DNA of 64,000 nt from Shigella phage ESh15. The notes beneath the pieces were generated by a model. That model was not told the origin of the DNA. It saw only the letters and a list, made by a program, of their open reading frames with translations, and did not search any database. The stretch lies in the sequence record ON528725. One strand, given 5' to 3'. Below, piece after piece: positions 3,910-30,300 of this stretch (within the stretch, counting starts at the first letter, position 1; each line of letters begins with the position of its first letter). The position numbers and the translations under genes were made by a program.

Positions 3910-4242
3910 TCACTTATAAAGACACGGAATAGCTTTATAGTGGCATGTTACGAATTTCTGTTTAATTTCTTTAGGTTGTTTAAGTCCCAAAGCCACAAAT
4001 GGATGTGGAACATTTCGAATTTGTCCAACTGGTAGTGGAGTCAAATCACCGACTTCAACAAAACCTTCAGGAACATCAGGACCTACAGAATGAACTACAC
4101 ATAGTTCAGGAACTTCACCTTGAACACGTTTACCAATCACAAGTCCTGATTCGGTAACTTCTTCATCACCTGCTTGAGCAGGTTCAGAAACCAGAATGAC
4201 ATATTCACCAACAGCACGAATTGGGAGTTGTACTTCAGACAT
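3910..4242 (-). CDS. 31: gp31 co-chaperonin (GroES analogue)
   Basis: 110 aa; [34 protein letters not shown]... near-identical to my recollection of T4 gp31. Confidence 0.9.
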
Positions 4243-4299
4243 CTTATTTCCTTGTTGTTTGACGATAGATTAATAATACCATACTATTCGTAAAGCATA

Positions 4300-4608
4300 T
4301 TACATAAGAAGCAAACGTTCTACCGGAGTACCATCAACCGAAATTACTTTATCAAGGCGGAAAGAACGCCACTGACCTAACTTGGTATCGAATGCTCGAA
4401 CTGATTCACGAGGTTCATAACGAACTTCTGTTGCCGGATTGTTATTTTCATATTTGACTTCAAGTTCATCGCGCGAAGCAAACATAGTGCGTACCTCACC
4501 GTTAGCCTTTTCAAATACAACACAATGAACGCCTACAGACAGAATAGTTTTAATACGTTCACGAAGAACCATAGTTTCTTGTTCAGTTAAAATCATATTA
4601 TTCACCAC
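4300..4608 (-). CDS. hypothetical protein (102 aa, 31.1 position)
   Basis: Track ORF between cd and 31. Confidence 0.45.
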   Translation of the reverse strand: MVNNMILTEQETMVLRERIKTILSVGVHCVVFEKANGEVRTMFASRDELEVKYENNNPATEVRYEPRESVRAFDTKLGQWRSFRLDKVISVDGTPVERLLLM

Positions 4609-5179
4609 AAAAGTTTCGAATTTGTTCCCAATTCAGAGAACGAAGATTATTACGAGAGTACTGAATTACTTCAATACCAGCTTGTTTAAGAATGTCTGCC
4701 CAATTTTCAGGAGATCGGTCATATAATTCTGCATATACAACCTTTTTAATACCTGACTGCGTAATAGCTTTAGTGCAATCAGGACACGGAGAAAGCGTCG
4801 TATATAACGTAGCACCTTCAATAGAATTACCTTTACGAGCTGCAAACAAAATTGCGTTCAGTTCCGCATGGATTTCGTTATTAGCAGACCATGCACTATG
4901 AGCGGCCCGGTGTTCTTTAGCCAAAACAAAATTATCGGCCCGTCCAAATGCTGTAGTGCCTTCTTTATGTCCAGCAACGATGACCGGACTTGGTTTATTC
5001 TTCAACCAGCCTTGTTCAGTAGCATGGTCACAACAGTTTATACCACCTGAAGGAGAGCCATTATATCCAGTAGAGATAATGCGTCCATCTTTTTCAATGA
5101 CTGCGCCAACTTTCCATGAACAACATTTTGATTCTTGAGAAATCAGATATGCAATCTGAAGGTATGTGCTAGCTTTCAT
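4598..5179 (-). CDS. cd: dCMP deaminase
   Basis: 193 aa; cytidine/dCMP deaminase zinc motifs (HAE...PCxxC) and close match to recalled T4 Cd. Confidence 0.9.
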   Translation of the reverse strand: MKASTYLQIAYLISQESKCCSWKVGAVIEKDGRIISTGYNGSPSGGINCCDHATEQGWLKNKPSPVIVAGHKEGTTAFGRADNFVLAKEHRAAHSAWSANNEIHAELNAILFAARKGNSIEGATLYTTLSPCPDCTKAITQSGIKKVVYAELYDRSPENWADILKQAGIEVIQYSRNNLRSLNWEQIRNFCGE

Positions 5180-6171
5180 TATTGAACCTTATTAATATAA
5201 GTTAACAGCTCTTTAGTTTGTTCCCAACTGATGCACGCATCGGTAATGGAAACGCCATAGGACATATTATCAGAAATTTTTTGATTTCCTTCATGTAGGA
5301 ACGATTCTATCATAATTCCTTTGACCAAATCATTAGCTGCTAAATTTTTACCAATACCAATTTGATTGCTATAATGCCCATCAGCGTTTGCATGGCTACA
5401 GTCAACCATTACATAATGATTCAGACCTACTGCCCTTGCTTTGTTAGAAGCTTCTTGAATATCAGAAGAATGATAGTTTGGGCCATTGGTCCCACCACGC
5501 AATACGATATGCGTATTCTGATTACCTTCAGCTTCAACAATGCCTACAGTACCATCGACGTCCATACCCATATACCGATGAGGCCAGGCGGCACTATACA
5601 TCGCGTCTGTAGCTACTTTAATAGAACCATTGGTTGCGTTCTTAAAGCCTACGCACATCGGTAGACCTGAAGCAATTTCACGATGTGTCTGACTTTCAGT
5701 CGTACGGGCGCCAATAGCAACCCATGAGAAAATACCAGAAAGATACTTAATCGTGAATGGGTCTAATACTTCAGTTGCTAATGGAAGTCCCATACGTAGA
5801 AGTTTACGACACAATGTTCGTGCAACTATAAGACCGTGGTTCATATCAAAACTTCCGTCAAGATATGGATCATTTACAAGACCTTTCCAACCTACGGTAG
5901 TTCGAGGCTTTTCAAAATAAACGCGCATCACTAACAGAACATTAGGAAGACGAGTTTGAAGTTCAGCCAGACGTTTGCCGTATTCAACAGCAGCAATAGG
6001 GTCATGAATTGAACAAGGACCTACAACAATAAGTTTGCGTGGGTCTTCACCGTTCATAATCGAATTAACTTGTTCGCGATGAGAAGCCACTTGTGATGCG
6101 TAAGCTTCCGACAAAGGAATAATCTCAGCCAGTTCTTTTGGAGAAATAAGTTTTCCGACGACAGGTAACAT
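5179..6171 (-). CDS. 3-deoxy-7-phosphoheptulonate (DAHP) synthase, class I (AroG/AroF/AroH-like)
   Basis: 330 aa; VVGPCSIHDP, VMRVYFEKPRTTVGWKGL, IGARTTESQ motifs as in E. coli AroG; RBS AAGGA; stop overlaps cd start. Confidence 0.85.
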   Translation of the reverse strand: MLPVVGKLISPKELAEIIPLSEAYASQVASHREQVNSIMNGEDPRKLIVVGPCSIHDPIAAVEYGKRLAELQTRLPNVLLVMRVYFEKPRTTVGWKGLVNDPYLDGSFDMNHGLIVARTLCRKLLRMGLPLATEVLDPFTIKYLSGIFSWVAIGARTTESQTHREIASGLPMCVGFKNATNGSIKVATDAMYSAAWPHRYMGMDVDGTVGIVEAEGNQNTHIVLRGGTNGPNYHSSDIQEASNKARAVGLNHYVMVDCSHANADGHYSNQIGIGKNLAANDLVKGIMIESFLHEGNQKISDNMSYGVSITDACISWEQTKELLTYINKVQ

Positions 6172-6291
6172 AACAATCCTTAGGAGATATAAACAGATTC
6201 TGATTCAACAATACCTTTAACCGGATTAGACAGGCTAAGTTGGTAGTGCTCAGATTTATGACCATTCTCTATAGTAATGAGATAGCTCTCA

Positions 6292-6528
6292 TTATAGTGT
6301 TCCATATACTCGAGTTGCTTCAACAAGACCATCACTGCCTAATTTAAGATTAGTAATTTGGTCACCATCTTTAGGATTAACGATTATGAGAAAAGAACGT
6401 GGAGATTCTTGAATAACTCGTAATGTTGCATCCTGGAAACGTTCAGACACTTTATTGATGAGTGCTTGAGCAAATTCTTTTACTTTAATCTGAAATTCGT
6501 GTACTGTAATTGGATTTTCACTTAGCAT
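6292..6528 (-). CDS. hypothetical protein (78 aa)
   Basis: Track ORF between DAHP synthase and pseT. Confidence 0.4.
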   Translation of the reverse strand: MLSENPITVHEFQIKVKEFAQALINKVSERFQDATLRVIQESPRSFLIIVNPKDGDQITNLKLGSDGLVEATRVYGTL

Positions 6529-6588
6529 TTCGATTTCCTCATTTGTTGGTAGAGTTATAGTACCACAACTCCACCATGTTGTAAACCA

Positions 6589-7267: not shown

Positions 7268-7268
<1 letters not shown>
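7077..7268 (-). CDS. hypothetical protein (63 aa)
   Basis: Track ORF directly downstream of pseT. Confidence 0.4.
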
Positions 7269-8354
<1,086 letters not shown>

Positions 8355-10120: not shown

Positions 10121-11254
<1,134 letters not shown>

Positions 11255-21584: not shown

Positions 21585-24500
21585 ATGGCCGACATCAAAC
21601 GTAAGTTCAGAGCCGAAGACGGTCTGGACGCCGGTGGCGACAAGATTGTTAACGTAGCATTAGCCGACCGTACAGTAGGTACTGATGGCGTAAACGTTGA
21701 CTTCCTTGTACAAGAAAACACCGTTCAAGTATATGATTCTACGCGTGGATATAACAAAGGATTTGTTGTTCTTTATGACAACCGTTTATATCAAGCAATA
21801 AATGATATCGTGTCTCCTTCCGGGGCATTTAACCTTTTACAATGGCGTGCAGTTCGTACTGATGCACAATGGATAACTGTAGCTTCTGGGGCTTATCAAC
21901 TTTCTTCAGGTGAATCGATTTCGGTTAACACTGGTGCCGGCAATGATATGGTTTTCACGTTGCCAAATACTCCGGTTGATGGTGATACTGTTGTTTTGGC
22001 TGATATTGGTGGACGAACCGGGACAGTTAAAGTACAGATTAACGCGTCTGTACAGAGTATTTTAAACTTTAGAGGTGAACAAGTTCGTACAGTTTTAATG
22101 ACGCGCCCACGTTCACAACTATTGTTTGTGTTTAGTAATCGTTTGTGGCAGATGTATATTACCGATTATGGTAAAGAATCAATCACTGTTACACCTGCGA
22201 CACCATATCAAGCACAAGCAAATGATTTTATCGTTCGTCGTTTTACTAGTGCAGCACCAATCAACATTACACTTCCACGTAATGCTAACAATGGTGATAT
22301 AATCAGCCTAGTCGATTTAGATAGATTAAACCCACTGTATCATACATTTGTTAAAACATTTGATGATACAACGTCTATTGGTGAAGTCGGGACTCATATT
22401 GCCGAAGGCAGAAATGACTCTGACGCGTTTTTTGTTTTTGATGCTGCAAATAGTTTATGGCGTATATGGGAAGGAGACCAGAAATCGCGTCTTCGTATTA
22501 TCCGTGCGGATTCAAATATTCGACCAAATGAAGAAGTTCTTATTTTTGGCACAAATAACGCTACACACGGAACTATTAATCTTACGCTGCCTTCCGGAAT
22601 TTTGAGCGGTGACACTGTTAAAATTTCAATGAACTACATGCGTAAAGGCCAAACGGTAAAAATTAAAGCTGCCGAAGGTGATACAATTGCTTCTTCTGTC
22701 GCATTACTTCAGTTCCCTAAACGTTCTGAATATCCACCTGATGCTCAATGGGTCTCTGTTACTGAACTAGAATTCAATGGTACTACTTCATATGTTCCTG
22801 TATTAGAATTAGCGTATATCGAAGACACCGTTGCTGGTACACGCTATTGGGTTGTTCAACAAAACGTCCCAACTGTAGAACGTGTCGATGCTGGAACTGA
22901 TACAACTAGAGCTCGTGTAGGTGTTATTGCTCTTGCAACTCAGGCACAGGCAAATGTTGATTTTGAAAATTCTCCGGCTAAAGAAGTTGCTATTACTCCG
23001 GAAACATTGGCAAATCGTACAGCAACTGAAGCTAGACGTGGTATCGCTAAAATTGCTACAACAGCACAAGTTAACCAGAATTCCACAGCATCATTTGTGG
23101 ACGATACTATTGTTACGCCTAAAAAACTAAATGAGCGTACAGCAACTGAAACTCGTCGTGGTCTTGCTGAAATTGCTACTCAGGTTGAAACCGATGCTGG
23201 TCTTGATGACACAACGATTATTACACCTAAGAAATTACAGGCACGTCAGGGTTCTGAAACACTATCTGGTATAGTTAAATATGTATCAACTACTTCTGCT
23301 ACTCCTGCTGAAACTCGTGGGGCCGCAGGCACTAATGTTTATAATAAAACCGTAAATAATTTAACTATTTCTCCTAAAGCCCTTGACCAATATAAAGCAA
23401 CTTATGCTCAACAAGGTGCAGTAATTTTAGCTGTTGATAGTGAAGTAATTGCTGGTCAATCTCAAGCAGGTTATTCTCATGCTGTAGTAACTCCTGAAAC
23501 ACTACATAAGAAAACTTCTACTGATGGACGTATTGGTTTAATTGAAATTGCTACGCAAGCAGAAACTAATGCTGGGACTGATTATACACGTGCAGTAACG
23601 CCTAAGACGTTAAATGATAGGAAAGCTACGGAAGGATTATCCGGCATAGCCGAAATTGCTACGCAAGTTGAATTTGATACTGGAACTGATGATACTCGTA
23701 TCTCGACTCCACTGAAAATTAAAACTCATTTTGATTCTTCTGACCGTACCAGTGTTAATTCTGATTCCGGACTTATTGAAGAAGGAACCTTGTGGAACCA
23801 TTATACTCTTGATATTTCTAAAGCAAATGAAACACAACGTGGTACACTTCGCGTAGCGACCCAGGCAGAATCTAATGCAGGAACTTTAGATGATGTTCTT
23901 ATTACTCCTAAAAAGCTTTTAGGGACTAAGTCCACTGAAACGTCTGAAGGTGTAATTAAGGTTGCTACTCAGGCTGAAACTGTAACAGGAACTTCTACTA
24001 ATACTGCTGTATCTCCTAAGAATTTAAAATGGATTGTCCAGAATGAACCAACATGGGCTGCTACCACAGCAATTCGTGGATTCGTTAAAACTTCATCCGG
24101 TTCTATTACATTTGTTGGTAATGATACAGTCGGTTCAACGCAACCTTTAGAATCATATGAAAAAAATAGCTATGCTATATCTCCATATGAATTAAACCGT
24201 GTACTTGCTAACTATTTGCCATTAAAAGCAAAAGCTGCTGACGCAAATTTATTAGATGGTCTAGATTCATCTCAGTTCATTCGTAGGGATATTGCACAGA
24301 CGGTTAATGGTTCACTAACCTTAACCCAACAAACGAATCTGAGTGCCCCTCTTGTATCATCTAGTACTGCTACGTTTGGTGGTTCAGTTTCGGCAAATAG
24401 TACATTAACTATTTCTAATACCGGAACAGCTACTCGTCTGATTTTTGAGAAAGGACCTCAAACTGGAACTAACCCAGCGCAGACGATGAGTATCAGAGTT

Positions 24501-25460
24501 TGGGGAAATCAGTTTGGTGGCGGTTCAGATACAACACGTTCTACTGTATTTGAAGTTGGCGATGAAACGTCTAATCATTTTTATTCTCAACGTAATAAAG
24601 ATGGGAATATAGCGTTTAGCATTAATGGCACTGTAATGCCAATAAACATTAATGCTTCCGGCTTGATGAATGTGAATGGTGTTGCAACATTCGGCCGTTC
24701 AGTTACAGCCAATGGTGAATTCATTAGCAAGTCTGCAAATGCTTTCAGAGCAATAAGTGGTGATTACGGATTCTTTATTCGTAATGATGCTGCTAATACC
24801 TATTTTATGCTTACTGCATCTGGTGATCAGACCGGTGGATTTAATGGATTACGTCCTTTGGCTATTAATAATGCATCTGGCCAAGTAACGATTGGTGAAA
24901 GCTTAATCATTGCTAAAGGTGCTACTATAAATTCAGGTGGTTTAACTGTTAACTCGAGAATTCGTTCTCAGGGTTCTAAAACTGCTGATTTATACACTCG
25001 TGCTCCTACTGCTGATACAGTCGGATTCTGGTCAATCGATATTAACGATTCAGCCACTTATAATCAGTTCCCGGGTTATTTTAAAATGGTTGAAAAAACT
25101 AATGAAGTGACTGGGCTTCCATACTTAGAACGTGGTGAAGAAGTTAAATCTCCTGGTACATTGACTCAATTTGGTAATACGCTTGATTCTCTTTACCAAG
25201 ATTGGATTACTTATCCAACGACACCAGAAGCGCGTACCACTCGCTGGACACGTACATGGCAGAAAACCAAAAACTCATGGTCGAGTTTTGTTCAGGTATT
25301 TGATGGTGGAAACCCTCCTCAACCTTCTGATATTGGTGCTTTACCTTCCGATAATGCAACAATCGGAAACTTGACAATAAGGGATTTCTTAAGGATTGGT
25401 AATGTTCGCATTATTCCAGACCCTGTGAATAAATCTGTTAAATTCGAGTGGATTGAATAA
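21585..25460 (+). CDS. 34: long tail fibre proximal subunit gp34
   Basis: 1291 aa; N- and C-terminal regions nearly identical to recalled T4 gp34; internal TPKKL/TPETL repeat units. Confidence 0.95.
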   Translation: MADIKRKFRAEDGLDAGGDKIVNVALADRTVGTDGVNVDFLVQENTVQVYDSTRGYNKGFVVLYDNRLYQAINDIVSPSGAFNLLQWRAVRTDAQWITVASGAYQLSSGESISVNTGAGNDMVFTLPNTPVDGDTVVLADIGGRTGTVKVQINASVQSILNFRGEQVRTVLMTRPRSQLLFVFSNRLWQMYITDYGKESITVTPATPYQAQANDFIVRRFTSAAPINITLPRNANNGDIISLVDLDRLNPLYHTFVKTFDDTTSIGEVGTHIAEGRNDSDAFFVFDAANSLWRIWEGDQKSRLRIIRADSNIRPNEEVLIFGTNNATHGTINLTLPSGILSGDTVKISMNYMRKGQTVKIKAAEGDTIASSVALLQFPKRSEYPPDAQWVSVTELEFNGTTSYVPVLELAYIEDTVAGTRYWVVQQNVPTVERVDAGTDTTRARVGVIALATQAQANVDFENSPAKEVAITPETLANRTATEARRGIAKIATTAQVNQNSTASFVDDTIVTPKKLNERTATETRRGLAEIATQVETDAGLDDTTIITPKKLQARQGSETLSGIVKYVSTTSATPAETRGAAGTNVYNKTVNNLTISPKALDQYKATYAQQGAVILAVDSEVIAGQSQAGYSHAVVTPETLHKKTSTDGRIGLIEIATQAETNAGTDYTRAVTPKTLNDRKATEGLSGIAEIATQVEFDTGTDDTRISTPLKIKTHFDSSDRTSVNSDSGLIEEGTLWNHYTLDISKANETQRGTLRVATQAESNAGTLDDVLITPKKLLGTKSTETSEGVIKVATQAETVTGTSTNTAVSPKNLKWIVQNEPTWAATTAIRGFVKTSSGSITFVGNDTVGSTQPLESYEKNSYAISPYELNRVLANYLPLKAKAADANLLDGLDSSQFIRRDIAQTVNGSLTLTQQTNLSAPLVSSSTATFGGSVSANSTLTISNTGTATRLIFEKGPQTGTNPAQTMSIRVWGNQFGGGSDTTRSTVFEVGDETSNHFYSQRNKDGNIAFSINGTVMPININASGLMNVNGVATFGRSVTANGEFISKSANAFRAISGDYGFFIRNDAANTYFMLTASGDQTGGFNGLRPLAINNASGQVTIGESLIIAKGATINSGGLTVNSRIRSQGSKTADLYTRAPTADTVGFWSIDINDSATYNQFPGYFKMVEKTNEVTGLPYLERGEEVKSPGTLTQFGNTLDSLYQDWITYPTTPEARTTRWTRTWQKTKNSWSSFVQVFDGGNPPQPSDIGALPSDNATIGNLTIRDFLRIGNVRIIPDPVNKSVKFEWIE

Positions 25461-25468
25461 GAGGTATT

Positions 25469-26596
25469 ATGGAAAAATTTATGGCTAAGTTTGGACAAGG
25501 ATACGTCCAAACGCCATTTTTATCGGAAAGCAATTCAGTACGATTTAAATTAAGCATAGCGGGCTCTTGTCCGCTATCAACATCTCCTACTTATATTAAG
25601 TTCCAAGATAATCCACTTGGGTCTCAGGTTTTTTCTGTTGGATTAAATGTTCGTGTAATAAATCCTACAACAGGTGCAGTAGTTGAATCTAAGTCATATA
25701 ATTTCTCTACTGAAAACGACGCCACGTCAAGTGCATTTGTTACTTACATGGACACATATGCTTCTAATTTTATATTTGCTCTTGTTACTAACGCTAAAAC
25801 AAACTTTCCTCCTGAAGTTCTTGCATGGTTTACTAAAGCTGGAAGTTCTGTTATTCCATTAGCACAACAAGTTTTAAATATAGTGGACATTTCTTATTCG
25901 GCATTTTATATTTCCGGTAAGAATGCTATAGCACTAGAACATATTAAGTATAGTAATAAGAAAACTTCAACTGACTATAGTACACCACTTGATGTTGTGT
26001 ACGACACTATCAATGATATTGGTGCTACCGGCTTCCCTAGTCGTACGTATGAATCGACAGACACATTTTTATCTGCTGTTGGTGGTACTAATAATGAAAT
26101 TAAAAGGATGCCTACAACGTCCATTATTACACCTCTCGCTGGGTATAAATTGAAGCCTGGAGATTTCCTTTATATGAAATTCCAACTAATGGCCGATGCT
26201 GATTTGTTAGCACAAGGGACGACACGACTTTCTATTCGTTTCTTTAAATCTCCTTCTACTTCACCTATTTCATTTAAGGATATAAACTTTGATGGGGATG
26301 CAGGTGAATGGAAGATATATGAAGACTACATAGAAATTCCTGCTGGTGCTGACGGGTTCACGATTTATTGTTATCGTACAGCTCCAGTCGGGCAAGGCGG
26401 ATTAAGAAACGTTATATTCACTGAAGTATCATGTAATGGAAGCGTTTCAAAACCTGCTGAGTTTGGTATAAATGGTATTCGTGTAAATTATGTTTCAGAA
26501 TCTTTAAGTGCCCCGGACATAATGTCATTACCTACTCAATCTTCAACCGATACTGGTAAGGTATTTGGACAAGAATTTAAAGAAGCATCAGAATAA
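25469..26596 (+). CDS. 35: long tail fibre hinge gp35
   Basis: 375 aa; position and size as T4 gp35; RBS AAGAGG. Confidence 0.85.
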   Translation: MEKFMAKFGQGYVQTPFLSESNSVRFKLSIAGSCPLSTSPTYIKFQDNPLGSQVFSVGLNVRVINPTTGAVVESKSYNFSTENDATSSAFVTYMDTYASNFIFALVTNAKTNFPPEVLAWFTKAGSSVIPLAQQVLNIVDISYSAFYISGKNAIALEHIKYSNKKTSTDYSTPLDVVYDTINDIGATGFPSRTYESTDTFLSAVGGTNNEIKRMPTTSIITPLAGYKLKPGDFLYMKFQLMADADLLAQGTTRLSIRFFKSPSTSPISFKDINFDGDAGEWKIYEDYIEIPAGADGFTIYCYRTAPVGQGGLRNVIFTEVSCNGSVSKPAEFGINGIRVNYVSESLSAPDIMSLPTQSSTDTGKVFGQEFKEASE

Positions 26597-26601
26597 ATTT
26601 A

Positions 26602-26626
26602 GGGAGACTTCGGTCTCCCATTTTTG
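26602..26626 (+). terminator. intrinsic terminator after gene 35
   Basis: GGGAGAC-UUCG-GUCUCCC hairpin followed by AUUUUUG. Confidence 0.7.
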
Positions 26627-26634
26627 TATAAATA
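26627..26634 (+). promoter_or_regulatory. late promoter TATAAATA for gene 36
   Basis: Exact TATAAATA immediately after the terminator, 25 nt upstream of gene 36 ATG. Confidence 0.7.
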
Positions 26635-26658
26635 TGGTATACATATAAGGAGACAACT

Positions 26659-27324
26659 ATGGCCGATTTAAAAGCTGGTAGTACAACTGGCGGTGCCGTT
26701 ATATGGCATCAAGGTAATTTCCCTTTAATGCCAGCAGGTGATGACGTCCTGTATAAAACGTTTAAACTCTATTCAGAATATAATAAACCACAAGCTGCTG
26801 ATAACGATTTCGTTTCTAAAGCTAATGGTGGTACGTATGCCGCTCGAGTAACATTTAATAACGGTGTGCAAATACCTTATGCCATAAATAACACAAATCA
26901 AAGTGGTATTTTCCCAGGCAACGGTGACAATGCAACATATGATATGGCAAACATCGATATTGTTTCATGGTATGGCATTGGATTTAAATCTTCTCAAGGT
27001 TCTGCATTACGTACTGTGGTTATTAACACTCGTACCGGTGATATCAGCACTAAGGGCGGTCTTTATGCAACTGGTCCTGTCCGTTCTAACGCTACTGCTC
27101 CTATAGCAGCAAATGACCTTACTCGTAAAGATTATGTTGATGGACGAATAAATATTGTTACGGATAACGCAAATTCCCGTGTATTGCGTAAAGGCGATAC
27201 CATGACTGGTACTTTAACAGCACCAAACTTTTTCTCACAGAATCCGGCCTCCGAGGCTAATCATGTTCCTCGTTTCGACCAGATTGTAATTAAAGATTCT
27301 GTTCAAGATTTCGGCTATTATTAA
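26659..27324 (+). CDS. 36: long tail fibre distal connector gp36
   Basis: 221 aa; position and size as T4 gp36. Confidence 0.85.
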
Positions 27325-27332
27325 GAGGACTT

Positions 27333-30300
27333 ATGGCTACATTAAAACAGATACAATTTAAAAGAAGCAAAGTAGCAGGAGTTAATCCTACTGCAGCACA
27401 ATTAGCCGAAGGCGAATTAGCGATAAACTTAAAAGATCGAACTCTTTTTACTAAAGATGACCTCGGTAATATTATTAGCCTAGGCTTTGCTAAGGGTGGT
27501 GATATTAACGGTAATGTAACTCAAACCGGCGATTATTTACAAAACGGCACATATAATCTTAATGGAAATCAGTTCGTTTATGCAGGAAAGTATATTGAAT
27601 TTTTGCCAAAAACTGCTGGAAATGGCGCTTGGGCTAACCAACACACAAATAAAGCCCCTATCTTTACAGATTTGAGTTCAACTACTTCAACTTCTGAATA
27701 CCACCCTTTGATTAAGCAACGTTATAAAGACGGTACTTTTTCAGTAGGTACATTAGTAAGCGAAGGCTCATTTAGAGTTCATTATATTGATTCTACAGCT
27801 CCAGACAATTCTAAACACTGGGTCTTTAACCGTAATGGTAATTTTATTGTAGATTCTGGTAGTATTGAGGTCCGCGCAGGTAATATTTCTGCGTCAGGCA
27901 ATATTAACTCCGCTAATGGTATAGTTTCTGCTCCACAAGTTAATACGAAAACCATTGTTTTAGACACAAAAGCATTCGGACAATATGATTCACAGTCATT
28001 AGTTCAATATGTTTATCCTGGAACAGGTGAAGAAAACGGTATAAACTATCTTCGTAAAGTTCGAGCTAAATCAGGCGGAACTATTTACCATGAAATCGCT
28101 TCGGCTCAAACTGGTAAGAATGATGAAATTTCTTGGTGGACCGGAAATACACTTACTACTAAATTAATGGGTCTTCGTAATGATGGCGCAATGGTATTAC
28201 GTCGTTCACTTGCTATTGGCACAATTACCACTGATGAAAATACTAACAACTACGGTTCTCCTACTCCAATGGGAGAAAGATATATTGCTTTGGGCGATGC
28301 TGCAACCGGTTTAAAATACATTAAGCAGGGTGTTTATGATTTAGTAGGTAATTGGAATTCTGTTGCGTCTATTACTCCAGATAGTTTCCGTAGTACTCGT
28401 AAAGGTATATTTGGTCGTTCTGAGGACCAAGGCGCAACTTGGATAATGCCTGGTACAAATGCTGCTCTCTTGTCTGTTCAAACACAAGCTGATAATAACA
28501 ACGCTGGAGACGGTCAAACTCATATTGGGTACAATGCTGGCGGCAAAATGAGTCATTATTTCCGCGGTAAAGGCAAAACTAATATTAATACTCAGGAAGG
28601 TGTAGACGTTAACCCAGGTATATTGAAGTTAACCACCGGCGGTGAAAGTATTAGCTTTAATGCCGCAACTGGAAGTATTAATTCTACATTAGCTTTTCGT
28701 CTTAATAAAGGCATAATTATTGATGGACCTGATAATCAGGGATTCCAGTTTAACGCTCCGACGGCTGCAGATGGTACTAGAAGTATATACTGGAACAGTG
28801 GTACTCGCCCAGGTCAAAACAAAAGCCCTGTTACAGTTAAAGCATGGGGTAATTCATTTAATGCCACCGGTGATAAATCTCGTGAAACCATTTTTGAAAT
28901 TGGTGACGGCCAAGGGTATCATTTTTACTCTCAACGTGCCGCGCCTACAAATGATGAAACTGTTGGCCCTGTATTAATGCAAGTTTCAGGTTCTTTAAAT
29001 GCAAAAGGAACATTGACCGCCACTGGCAACCTTTATGTGGGAGGATTGAGTACACATGAAGGTGCTGTGACCATGAATAATGGACTTAATTTAACTGGTG
29101 GTTCTTCTATTACTGGCCAAGTTAAAATCGGTGGAACAGCAGATGCATTGAGAATTTGGAACGCTAAATACGGTGCTATTTTCCGTCGTTCAGAAGATTC
29201 GTTGTATATAATTCCAACTCCGCGGGATGCTGGTGAATCAGGTGGTATTTCTAATTTGCGTCCGTTCTATATTTCATTAAGTGATGGTAAAGTCAGCATG
29301 GATCATGATGTTGATATCGGTGGTGGAAGATTTAAAGTAGAAACTAGTGGAACAACATCAGGGCAACGTATTACAGTTAATACTGCCTCCGATGCTATTA
29401 GAATAAATGCCCCAACACAAGAATCTTCTAACTTCATCCAAGGACGTAAAGCAGATGTTCCGAAATGGTATTTAGGTATTGGCGATGGCGGCAACGTCGT
29501 TCGTATGCACAGTTACACCTACTCCCATGGTATTGCATTAAACTCTGATACGGTTGATATAGCTAAACCTCTTAGAATAGGTTCAACCCAGATTGGTACT
29601 GATGGTAACATAACTGGCGGCACTGGTAATTTTGCTAACTTGAATACCACAATAAATAACCTTAAGACAGATATCGTCTCGAGTTACCCAATTGGTGCTC
29701 CGATTCCTTGGCCTACTGATACACCTCCTGAAGGTTATGCCATAATGGAAGGTCAAACATTTGATGCTGGCTTGTATCCTAAGTTAGCTGCGGTGTATCC
29801 TTCCGGCGCTCTGCCTGATATGCGTGGACAAACGATTAAAGGTAAACCATCTGGGCGTGCTGTATTAAGTACAGAAGCAGACGGTGTTAAGTCACACACT
29901 CATAGTGCAAGTGCATCAAGCACAGATTTGGGTACTAAGACCACTTCTAGTTTTGATTACGGTAGCAAAACGACTTCAAGCTTTGATTATGGTACTAAGA
30001 CCAGTAATACCACTGGCAACCACAACCATACAGTGAGTGGTAATACTAGTTCAGCAGGAGCTCACCAACACGCTCGTTCAGGCCCTCAAATGCAAGGCGG
30101 CATACCCACTAGCATATTCTATGATGGATACAATAGCGCGGGTCCAAACGGCAACGCTAAAATCACTGGAACCGTGAGTGGTGCTACTGCATCGTCGAAT
30201 ATGGCCAAAACTTCTTCAGACGGTGCCCACACCCATAGTTGGTCAGGAACTACTAGCTCTACGGGTAACCATGCTCATACTGTGGGTATTGGTGCTCATA

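Follow-up and report, generated by a model that had tools for sequence, protein, structure and literature searches.

A DAHP synthase of T4-like phages with a clade-specific change of the feedback-inhibitor site

Sequence profiles, PDB matches and the predicted fold of an AF2 model confirm that the open reading frame at 5179..6171, on the minus strand of the window (the whole stretch of 64,000 nucleotides of Shigella phage ESh15, record ON528725, that was analysed), encodes a type I-alpha DAHP synthase. DAHP synthase opens the shikimate pathway and governs how much carbon enters aromatic biosynthesis; its control in bacteria is almost wholly a matter of feedback inhibition. The likeliest reading of the phage gene, to which we would give a probability of about 0.6, is that of an early-expressed, feedback-insensitive DAHP synthase that would keep carbon flowing to chorismate.

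Family identity and active site

The coding sequence starts with ATG and comprises 330 codons for amino acids. No further in-frame start codon is available upstream in the open reading frame listing of the window, because in this listing each frame begins at the first start codon that follows an in-frame stop. The protein matches the Pfam family DAHP_synth_1 (PF00793; E=4.3e-75, 252.6 bits against a cutoff of 25.5) and exceeds the cutoffs of NCBIfam TIGR00034, aroFGH (427.9 bits versus 173.2), and PRK12755 (455.3 versus 343), but it does not reach those of the AroG equivalog NF006723 (363.4 versus 568) or the AroH model NF009396 (386.9 versus 463). Its closest solved relative in a PDB sequence search is E. 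coli AroF (6agm, E=7e-105). The AF2 model (pLDDT 93.3) is a (beta/alpha)8 barrel before which stand helices H11-17 and H22-39, and Foldseek superimposes it on the solved DAH7PS structures 4hso, 1gg1 and 1kfl with a TM of 0.96 and an rmsd of 1.3-1.5 Å. The beta6a/6b hairpin (E198-203 and E209-214) is kept in the model, as is most of the N-terminal extension, of which the first 8-9 residues are missing.

The initial annotation had called this protein a full-length AroG-type DAHP synthase and had quoted three motifs, all of which are found: VVGPCSIHDP at residues 49-58, VMRVYFEKPRTTVGWKGL at 81-98 and IGARTTESQ at 153-161. Its assignment to class I, here type I-alpha, stands on Pfam, NCBIfam, the PDB matches and the intact residues, but the N-terminus falls 8-9 residues short of those of AroG, AroF and AroH, and the nearest type is AroF, as indicated by the top PDB match and by a Gly at AroG position 211.

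Cys61, His268, Glu302 and Asp326, the metal ligands of AroG, correspond to C53, H260, E289 and D311 of the window protein, and are invariant in 29/29 phage-clade and 98/98 cellular sequences. The residues for PEP and E4P (AroG Arg92, Lys97-Pro98-Arg99-Thr100 or KPRT, Ala164, Arg165, Lys186 and Arg234) are likewise all present, as R83, K88, P89, R90, T91, A155, R156, K177 and R225, and do not vary in the phage clade. Loss of metal- or PEP-binding residues on alignment had been named as evidence against the initial assignment; none is lost, and all 13 catalytic and substrate positions (C61, R92, K97, P98, R99, T100, A164, R165, K186, R234, H268, E302 and D326 of AroG) are invariant across the 29 phage-clade proteins, which are 56-98% identical to that of the window. 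Purifying selection acts on the gene, with dN/dS of 0-0.34 between close relatives and pN far below pS across genera. We infer a catalytically competent, metal-dependent enzyme that would convert PEP and erythrose-4-phosphate into DAHP and Pi.

Feedback-inhibitor site and N-terminus

An unbiased scan of the alignment found that only six of the 330 columns tell phage-clade and cellular enzymes apart. These correspond to the AroG changes P150I, Q151K, D155G, S180P, F209Y and T223A, all in the feedback-inhibitor region, and four of them fall among 15 pocket positions listed beforehand (hypergeometric p=4e-5). According to the mapping of residues to AroG, the altered site is encoded at 5530..5751 (minus strand), where the window protein has I141 (P150), K142 (Q151), G146 (D155), P171 (S180), Y200 (F209), G202 (S211) and A214 (T223); the codons of I141 and K142 can be read directly in the sequence at 5751..5746. 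At the position of AroG Q151, 98/98 cellular enzymes have Q and 29/29 phage enzymes have K or R. S180 is replaced by P and F209 by Y in every one of the 29 phage-clade proteins, and P150 by I in 28 of them. The change F209Y is a conservative one.

The first N-terminal residues of the cellular enzymes (D6 and D7 in AroG) presumably take part in inhibition, and the AroF changes N8K and delta-Ile11, reportedly described by Jossek in 2001, are said to tie these residues to it. The N-terminus of the window protein (MLPVVGKLIS, encoded at 6142..6171, minus strand) lacks the equivalents of AroG 1-9, including D6 and D7, and that of AroF N8. None of the 29 phage-clade proteins has equivalents of AroG residues 6-8, and they have 8-12 residues before the equivalent of AroG P19 versus at least 16 in 98/98 cellular sequences. 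The Phe site of type I-alpha enzymes is formed by the N-terminal extension and the beta-hairpin (PMC4735112). Within the inhibitor site, Q151/Q152 and S180/S181 touch the main chain of the inhibitor, a D155/D156 salt bridge stabilises the site, and P150L, S180F, F209A/S and Gln151 variants are feedback-resistant (PMC9529685). An intact site for aromatic amino acids, with D6/D7, P150, Q151, S180 and F209 and the support of D155, is not found in the phage enzyme.

The changes can be arranged in a stepwise series. At AroG positions 150, 151, 155, 180, 209, 211 and 223, the sister lineage L023 has P-N-H-P-Y-G-S, with 16 residues before P19; P0022 has P-K-G-P-Y-G-A, with 12; and the core phage clade has I-K-G-P-Y-G-A, with 8-10. 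Within the clade the pocket is more conserved than the protein average (entropy 0.27 versus 0.98, 10 of the 15 positions being invariant), which fits a structural lock and a new ligand site equally well.

The suggestion in the initial annotation that the enzyme could escape host feedback control gains support from the location of the clade-specific substitutions and of the N-terminal deletion, all in the inhibitor-binding site, and the phage DAHP synthase probably runs without the normal feedback brake of the host. The catalytic barrel is untouched, but the machinery of allosteric control found in cellular enzymes has been rebuilt, by deletion of the lid that supplies AroG D6/D7 (AroF N8) and by replacement of inhibitor contacts (P150I, Q151K, S180P and F209Y, plus D155G and T223A), and the likeliest consequence would be that Tyr, Phe or Trp cannot switch the enzyme off. 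We consider it somewhat better than an even chance that T4-like phages evolved in this stepwise manner a type I-alpha DAHP synthase that is naturally deregulated or answers to a new effector, and which would take over the shikimate control point during infection, the six substitutions and the loss of the lid turning an aromatic amino acid sensor into an interface that is permanently 'on' or controlled by the phage.

Genomic slot, expression signals and distribution

In the window pseT precedes the gene, and cd and gene 31 follow it, all features given here with coordinates being on the minus strand. The gene had been placed between cd and pseT. It does adjoin cd (4598..5179), which encodes a dCMP deaminase of 193 aa (Pfam dCMP_cyt_deam_1, E=1e-25; so annotated in PhAPEC2), but it is not adjacent to pseT, the polynucleotide kinase/phosphatase gene at 7268..8167 (Pfam HAD_PNKP, E=1.4e-58, and AAA_33), from which it is separated by four small open reading frames (homologues of cd.2, cd.3, RB69ORF227c and cd.4) and a gene remnant of 112 nt. 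The cd.2 homologue (6292..6528; DUF7320, 78 aa) is 96% identical to RB69 Cd.2. The remnant (6180..6291; 34 codons plus stop) is the 3' part of a second, foreign-type cd.2 (DUF7320) and forms a recombination scar: its product, YLITIENGHKSEHYQLSLSNPVKGIVESESVYIS, aligns with the C-terminal end of the Entb_45 and F48 Cd.2 proteins, not with the RB69-type Cd.2 of the window itself. The blastn breakpoints against RB69 are at 6277 and 5182, and the foreign-type remnant probably travelled with the DAHP synthase gene as a cassette, which would have arrived in this Mosigvirus lineage via recombination between T4-like phages.

The stop codon of the DAHP synthase gene (TAA, 5181..5179) and the ATG of cd (5179..5177) share base 5179 in a TAATG overlap at 5177..5181, so that translational coupling of the gene to cd, as the initial annotation had it, is plausible. 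The junction is a property of the slot, since in RB69 the same TAATG links cd.2 to cd. A Shine-Dalgarno sequence, AAGGA (6177..6181), is found 5 nt before the ATG of the DAHP synthase gene and overlaps the TAA of the remnant frame. A probable early promoter of T4 type is located at 6557..6585, between cd.3 and cd.2, where GTTTACA and TACTAT are 17 nt apart and TG stands before TACTAT. This call rests on homology with the T4 spacer, since the total of matches in the promoter scan is not above the expectation for shuffled sequences, while the site aligns with the cd.3-cd.2 spacer of T4, home of the annotated early promoter Pe133295. No terminator-like site was found on the minus strand between the candidate promoter and cd, and inspection by eye of the 120 nt upstream of the DAHP synthase gene rendered no middle or late promoter motifs. 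The candidate promoter would probably drive cd.2, the DAHP synthase gene and cd, and expression from this conserved spacer would probably be early, together with that of cd.

The window protein is 100% identical to that of Mosigvirus PhAPEC2 (YP_009056797.1), and a homologue is intact in 212 phage records, about 190-200 of which are T4-like phages of at least six genera. Identity is 97.9-99.7% in about 139 records of E. coli and Shigella phages, and phages of Klebsiella, Serratia and Proteus also carry the gene. About one in seven of the sequenced genomes of T4-like phages has it. The T4-like homologues are reported always in the pseT-cd slot; we found this slot in Entb_45, F48, PM2 and X20 (four genera) and in 10/10 IMG/VR loci at 58% identity or more, while in L023 the gene is directly upstream of that for thymidylate kinase. 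In PhAPEC2 no other shikimate-pathway gene is annotated in the 137 kb inspected (1-100 kb and 129.8-167.3 kb), which lie on either side of the late structural block. T4 had been said to have no such gene, and the annotated T4 record indeed contains none, as is also the case for RB69, of the same genus as this phage. The gene is accessory, and any benefit is conditional, because T4 and RB69 do well without it.

The phylogeny and database comparison proposed in the initial annotation place the window protein, which bears the I-K-G-P-Y-G-A signature, in a phage-only clade that is monophyletic in 100/100 NJ bootstraps. None of 185,579 bacterial species genomes has the phage-clade gene, the closest bacterial match being 53% identical, and identity to the E. 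coli enzymes is 51% for AroF, 47% for AroG and 44% for AroH. The base composition, described earlier as phage-like, is so by GC3, which is 0.287 for the DAHP synthase gene, near that of cd (0.258) and far from that of E. coli aroF (0.504). The long residence deduced from it agrees with the monophyly of the clade, its spread over at least six T4-like genera and its constant slot. The clade probably derives from an AroF-like gammaproteobacterial gene and has long been settled in the pseT-cd early-gene slot. Other viral DAHP synthase matches in IMG/VR, including giant-virus MAGs, bear the cellular P-Q-S-F-G at AroG 150, 151, 180, 209 and 211 and were discarded as unrelated acquisitions or mis-binned cellular DNA.

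Readings of the gene and likeness to known systems

An early-expressed, feedback-insensitive enzyme would let the infected cell keep carbon entering the shikimate pathway. The host enzymes AroB through AroC would finish the route to chorismate, and this flow would persist even when the DAHP synthases of the host are feedback-inhibited and not derepressible after the shut-off of host transcription. It is unlikely that the phage merely adds dosage of an ordinary Tyr-sensitive isozyme of the AroF type, inhibited like that of the host. AroF is the top PDB match, the Gly at AroG-211 is shared with the aligned Tyr-type enzymes, the AF2 model has the regulatory hairpin and several GenBank records carry the label 'Tyr-sensitive', but such labels are automatic annotation transfer, P150, Q151, S180 and F209 are replaced and the lid is deleted in 28-29 of the 29 clade members, and single changes at these positions already abolish the inhibition of AroG (PMC9529685). 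It can also be the case, though we find it doubtful, that the allosteric site was re-tuned rather than lost, the conserved I-K-G-P-Y-A pocket binding another effector under phage-specific control. Near-invariance of the pocket in a clade that diverges to 56% identity argues for this, since a neutral site without function would be expected to drift, and so does the directional change of charge brought about by Q to K and by the missing D/N that cellular enzymes conserve at AroG position 7; given the new Lys and the absence of the acidic lid, an anionic ligand that is not an amino acid might serve as effector, for instance prephenate, chorismate, an arylpyruvate or a nucleotide. On the other hand, we know of no type I-alpha enzyme with a non-amino-acid effector, and the conservation is equally explained by packing of the tight-dimer interface once the lid was lost.

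The enzyme could be as in the preferred reading, that of an early-expressed and feedback-insensitive DAHP synthase, and yet be selected for chorismate-derived cofactors, above all folate, which we consider rather unlikely. T4-like phages use much folate (td, frd, dCMP hydroxymethylase), the PhAPEC2 genome has thymidylate synthase and dihydrofolate reductase, and the next gene downstream is that for dCMP deaminase in the T4-like clade and that for thymidylate kinase in L023. Chorismate is the precursor of folate and quinones (PMC9529685), and an unregulated enzyme would count most when aromatic amino acids are abundant and the host enzymes shut. Against this, the neighbourhood in the T4-like early region reflects timing of expression more than pathway, the need for folate is small in terms of carbon, no pabA/B/C or fol genes stand alongside in the PhAPEC2 annotation inspected, and the argument is purely inferential. 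Use of another sugar phosphate, e.g. arabinose-5-phosphate in the manner of KDO8P synthase, is very improbable and was rejected on substrate residues, equivalog score and gene distribution: PF00793 does span KDO8P synthases, and PhAPEC2 does encode arabinose-5-phosphate and phosphoheptose isomerases to which a link could be drawn in Mosigvirus, but the aroFGH equivalog cutoff is exceeded by 250 bits, the KPRT motif for E4P and every substrate residue are those of AroG, RB69 has homologues of the isomerase cluster (according to notes in the PhAPEC2 annotation) and no DAHP synthase, and phages of Klebsiella, Serratia and Proteus have the gene too. That the gene is a passenger in decay or without function, for which its dispensability in T4 and RB69 might speak, or that it was captured recently from E. 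coli, the host, is effectively refuted, the pseudogene by open reading frames intact in 212 records, invariant catalytic residues and dN/dS well under 1, and the capture by the distance from AroF and from any bacterial genome and by the fully phage-like GC3.

If true, the preferred reading implies that a virulent phage with a rewritten inhibitor pocket would override a metabolic control point of its host, beyond adding a dose of enzyme. Moreover, it would assign a function to a gene of many T4-like phages that are candidates for therapy or biocontrol, and would provide metabolic engineering with a natural, ready-made feedback-resistant enzyme. Deregulation is cheap to test, with one protein, three effectors and one triple mutant.

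The gene itself is already known and, annotated in about 200 phage genomes, is ordinary as a database entry. Annotated T4-like examples, besides that of PhAPEC2, include 'AroG' of Shigella phage Shf125875, 'aroF' of the O157 typing phages, ORF64 of phiC120 and the gene of the Klebsiella Kanagawavirus KLB31; they are the same gene as that of the window, with no difference at the sequence level. It has been named as a DAHP synthetase domain or an auxiliary metabolic gene (PMC8022965, PMC11845039), and a paper on coliphage genomics makes no mention of it. The phage literature searched holds such annotation-level mentions only, with nothing on activity, regulation or the allosteric-site pattern and neither assays of the enzyme nor data on expression or on knockout phages for any member of the clade, and within it the clade-specific pattern appears to be undescribed for any phage enzyme.

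Among characterised enzymes, E. coli AroF (6agm/6agl), AroG and AroH have the same type I-alpha fold and active site as the phage enzyme, which differs from them in its shorter N-terminus and the six inhibitor-site changes, and shares with AroF the Gly at AroG position 211. The engineered AroG and AroF alleles used for the production of aromatic compounds (P150L, S180F, F209A/S, Gln151 variants and AroF P148L) are a closer parallel, the phage changes sharing positions 150, 151, 180 and 209 with laboratory mutations that abolish inhibition (PMC9529685), while P148 of AroF is unchanged. The phage version differs from these alleles in being natural, multi-site and under purifying selection and in having the lid deleted, and its resistance would follow from sequence. 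PhzC (PA1901), the type II DAH7PS of the P. aeruginosa phenazine cluster, has lost elements of the aromatic amino acid site and is insensitive (PMC6435475). PhzC is bacterial, belongs to a secondary-metabolite cluster and lost its control by omission of helices, not by replacement of residues; it nevertheless shows that a dedicated copy of DAHP synthase can be freed of control by aromatic amino acids.

A DAHP synthase gene adjoining cd

The ORF at 5179..6171 of the minus strand (330 aa, ATG start) contains all three motifs quoted in the initial annotation, and its identification as a DAHP synthase (DAHPS) was borne out by the Pfam DAHP_synth_1 profile (252.6 bits), the NCBIfam aroFGH equivalog (427.9 bits versus a cutoff of 173), solved relatives, of which E. 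coli AroF is the closest (6agm, E=7e-105), and an AlphaFold2 model. The latter, computed from a 120-sequence alignment, was confident (pLDDT 93.3, pTM 0.92) and superimposed on solved type I-alpha DAH7PS structures with a TM of 0.96 and an rmsd of 1.3-1.5 A. The protein, which had been described as full-length, is an intact DAHP synthase, but its N-terminus is 8-9 residues shorter than those of AroF, AroG and AroH. Its location between cd and pseT is correct in that the gene adjoins cd, but four small ORFs, homologues of cd.2, cd.3, RB69ORF227c and cd.4, separate it from pseT. An AAGGA ribosome-binding sequence lies 5 nt upstream of the DAHPS start on the minus strand, and the DAHPS stop and cd start overlap in TAATG (5181..5177, minus strand), with one base common to the stop and the ATG. 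Downstream on the same strand are found the gp31.1 homologue, a WYL_2/SH3-barrel protein (4300-4608), and gp31, a Cpn10-like co-chaperonin (3910-4242), which is the usual T4-like arrangement.

A candidate early promoter (GTTTACA, 17 nt, (TG)TACTAT; 6557-6585, minus strand) is located in the cd.3-cd.2 spacer, which aligns with the T4 spacer at the position of the T4-annotated early promoter Pe133295; the site is conserved with T4 and RB69, GTTTAC, the 17 nt and TG-TACTAT being kept. No terminator-like site was found on the minus strand between this candidate promoter and cd, and, judging from the sequence, DAHPS is likely transcribed early together with cd.

Distribution and origin of the gene

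The phage DAHPS gene is already known and annotated; in Escherichia phage vB_EcoM_PhAPEC2 (Mosigvirus), an annotated protein shows 100% identity with the window protein. A tblastn search rendered full-length homologues in 212 phage records, including 139 with at least 95% identity from phages of E. coli and Shigella, 47 from phages of Klebsiella, Enterobacter, Edwardsiella, Serratia and Erwinia at 60-80%, and a group at ca. 58% from Proteus, Providencia and Shigella. Taking gp31, a T4-like phage marker present in 1,395 records, as a yardstick, about 1 in 7 T4-like genomes would therefore carry DAHPS. Among the GenBank labels for the homologues are phospho-2-dehydro-3-deoxyheptonate aldolase, AroG and 'aroF, Tyr-sensitive'. 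P0001, a cluster representative at 98% identity, bears the NCBI name '3-deoxy-7-phosphoheptulonate synthase [Escherichia coli]'; judging from the length of its contig (170,875 bp), which matches that of T4-like genomes, it is probably encoded by a phage contig filed under its host. In the literature searched, no functional study of a phage DAHPS was found, and the gene is named at annotation level only in two papers, on phiC120 (PMC8022965) and on Klebsiella Kanagawavirus KLB31 (PMC11845039).

In line with the initial annotation, T4 has no such gene, its region comprising cd, cd.1, cd.2, an early promoter, cd.3-cd.5 and pseT. RB69 (NC_004928), which belongs to the same genus as the window phage, also lacks DAHPS: at 10240-10260 cd.2 is joined straight to cd via TAATG, the same overlap as in the DAHPS-cd junction of the window, and translation of this junction gives a complete Cd N-terminus, MKASTYLQ... 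(cf. window 5177-5181 and 6290-6294). DAHPS is therefore an accessory gene, whose presence/absence polymorphism within one genus is documented here. The gene order in carriers is pseT, small ORFs, DAHPS, 0-2 small ORFs, cd, gene 31, and was found in Kanagawavirus, Marfavirus, Bragavirus and Winklervirus as well as in 10 of 10 IMG/VR loci with an identity of at least 58%; these neighbours are absent from all viral matches that are more distant.

The 120-nt interval between the intact RB69-type cd.2 of the window and the DAHPS start contains a scar (6180-6291, minus strand) consisting of the 3'-terminal 34 codons of a further cd.2/DUF7320 gene, which is closer to Cd.2 of Entb_45 and F48 (Kanagawavirus/Marfavirus type) than to the window's own Cd.2. 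This foreign-type remnant beside DAHPS indicates that the cassette (cd.2 fragment plus DAHPS) reached the window's lineage by recombination between T4-like phages. TAATGAGAGCTATCTCAT, which follows directly on the cd.2 stop, is similar to the start of cd, TAATGAAAGCTAGCACAT.

The phage-like base composition and long residence proposed initially are borne out by the GC3 of DAHPS (0.287, versus 0.258 for cd, 0.504 for E. coli aroF and 0.567 for aroG), by the grouping of 29 phage-type proteins in one clade (100/100 NJ bootstraps), and by the finding of no cellular DAHPS more than 53% identical among 185,579 bacterial and archaeal species (one genome each). The sister group in the NJ tree includes AroF together with Pseudomonadales and Pasteurellaceae sequences.

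In PhAPEC2 (NC_024794), a cluster between uvsX and gene 43 (23639-30191) encodes thymidylate kinase, a second thymidylate-synthase-like protein, a peptidase, phosphoheptose isomerase and arabinose-5-phosphate isomerase, and presumably corresponds to the module for arabinosyl-hmC DNA modification that has been described for RB69. No further shikimate genes were found across the 137 kb inspected of this genome.

Active site and inhibitor site

The 29 phage-clade proteins were aligned with 95 cellular homologues plus AroG, AroF and AroH (98 cellular sequences in all). The phage clade shows no variation at any of the 13 metal, PEP and E4P positions; dN/dS among close relatives is 0-0.34, and selection clearly acts on catalysis.

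Position 151 (AroG numbering) is Q in 98/98 cellular sequences, versus K or R in 29/29 phage proteins. All 29 also have P at position 180 (S in AroG) and Y at 209 (F in AroG), 28 have I at 150 (P in AroG), and the N-terminal segment with AroG D6, D7 and L8 is missing from every one of them, position 7 being N or D in 95/95 cellular homologues. When columns were scanned without bias for conservation within each of the two groups but with different residues, only 6 of 330 emerged (P150I, Q151K, D155G, S180P, F209Y and T223A), four of them within 15 pocket positions listed beforehand (p=4e-5). T223 is on the regulatory hairpin, adjoining V221, and D155 forms a salt bridge by which the inhibitor site is stabilised (PMC9529685). 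A review supports reading the changes as functional: the inhibitor main chain is bound by Q151/Q152 and S180/S181 (PMC9529685), feedback-resistant variants include P150L, S180F, F209A/S, V221A and Gln151 variants (PMC9529685), and the Phe site is provided by the N-terminal extension together with a beta-hairpin (PMC4735112). All clade-defining changes are located in the feedback site, which gives a testable hypothesis from this analysis. The Pasteurella multocida protein P0120 is the sole one of the 98 cellular sequences with Pro at 180, and keeps Q151, P150 and F209.

At positions 150, 151, 155, 180, 209, 211 and 223, the core phage clade reads I-K-G-P-Y-G-A, with 8-10 residues before AroG P19; P0022, from a T4-like contig, reads P-K-G-P-Y-G-A, with 12 residues, and L023, which is encoded on a viral contig of 261 kb and groups as sister of the T4-like clade in 46/50 bootstraps, reads P-N-H-P-Y-G-S, with 16. 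These intermediate forms suggest a stepwise path of inhibitor-site change. The L023/L024 contig (IMG/VR 3300028829_003504) carries DAHPS at 3956-5005, with Q151N, S180P, F209Y and a longer N-terminus, flanked by NUDIX, eukaryotic-type topoisomerase IB and an overlapping thymidylate kinase gene, and represents a second virus lineage with DAHPS among nucleotide-metabolism genes. In other viral contigs, giant-virus MAGs among them, the cellular P-Q-S-F-G is retained at 150, 151, 180, 209 and 211. Many IMG/VR contigs (L039, L043, L048, L054, L055, L058, L060-L062, L064, L066, L067 and L070-L073), about half of them labelled GVMAG, have DAHPS fused to an extra C-terminal region (ORFs of ca. 590-680 aa) with a normal cellular inhibitor-site signature.

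Proposed role in infection

The best-supported reading is that DAHPS is an early-expressed, active DAHP synthase with an aromatic amino acid sensor predicted to be disabled. DAHP production in the infected cell would then go on regardless of the Tyr, Phe and Trp pools, and host enzymes would take the phage-made DAHP onward to chorismate. A re-tuned inhibitor site with a new effector also fits, the remodelled pocket being strongly conserved within the phage clade. As for the product under selection, both the aromatic amino acids and cofactors derived from chorismate, for example folate, are candidates; the neighbouring cd in the window and thymidylate kinase in L023 weakly hint at the cofactors.

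Overall, the identification and interpretation of the initial annotation are upheld, and the feedback-site hypothesis, the recombination scar and the within-genus polymorphism are added to what was known from annotation. The insensitivity predicted from sequence for the phage enzyme has a precedent in PhzC, a dedicated, aromatic-insensitive DAH7PS (PMC6435475).
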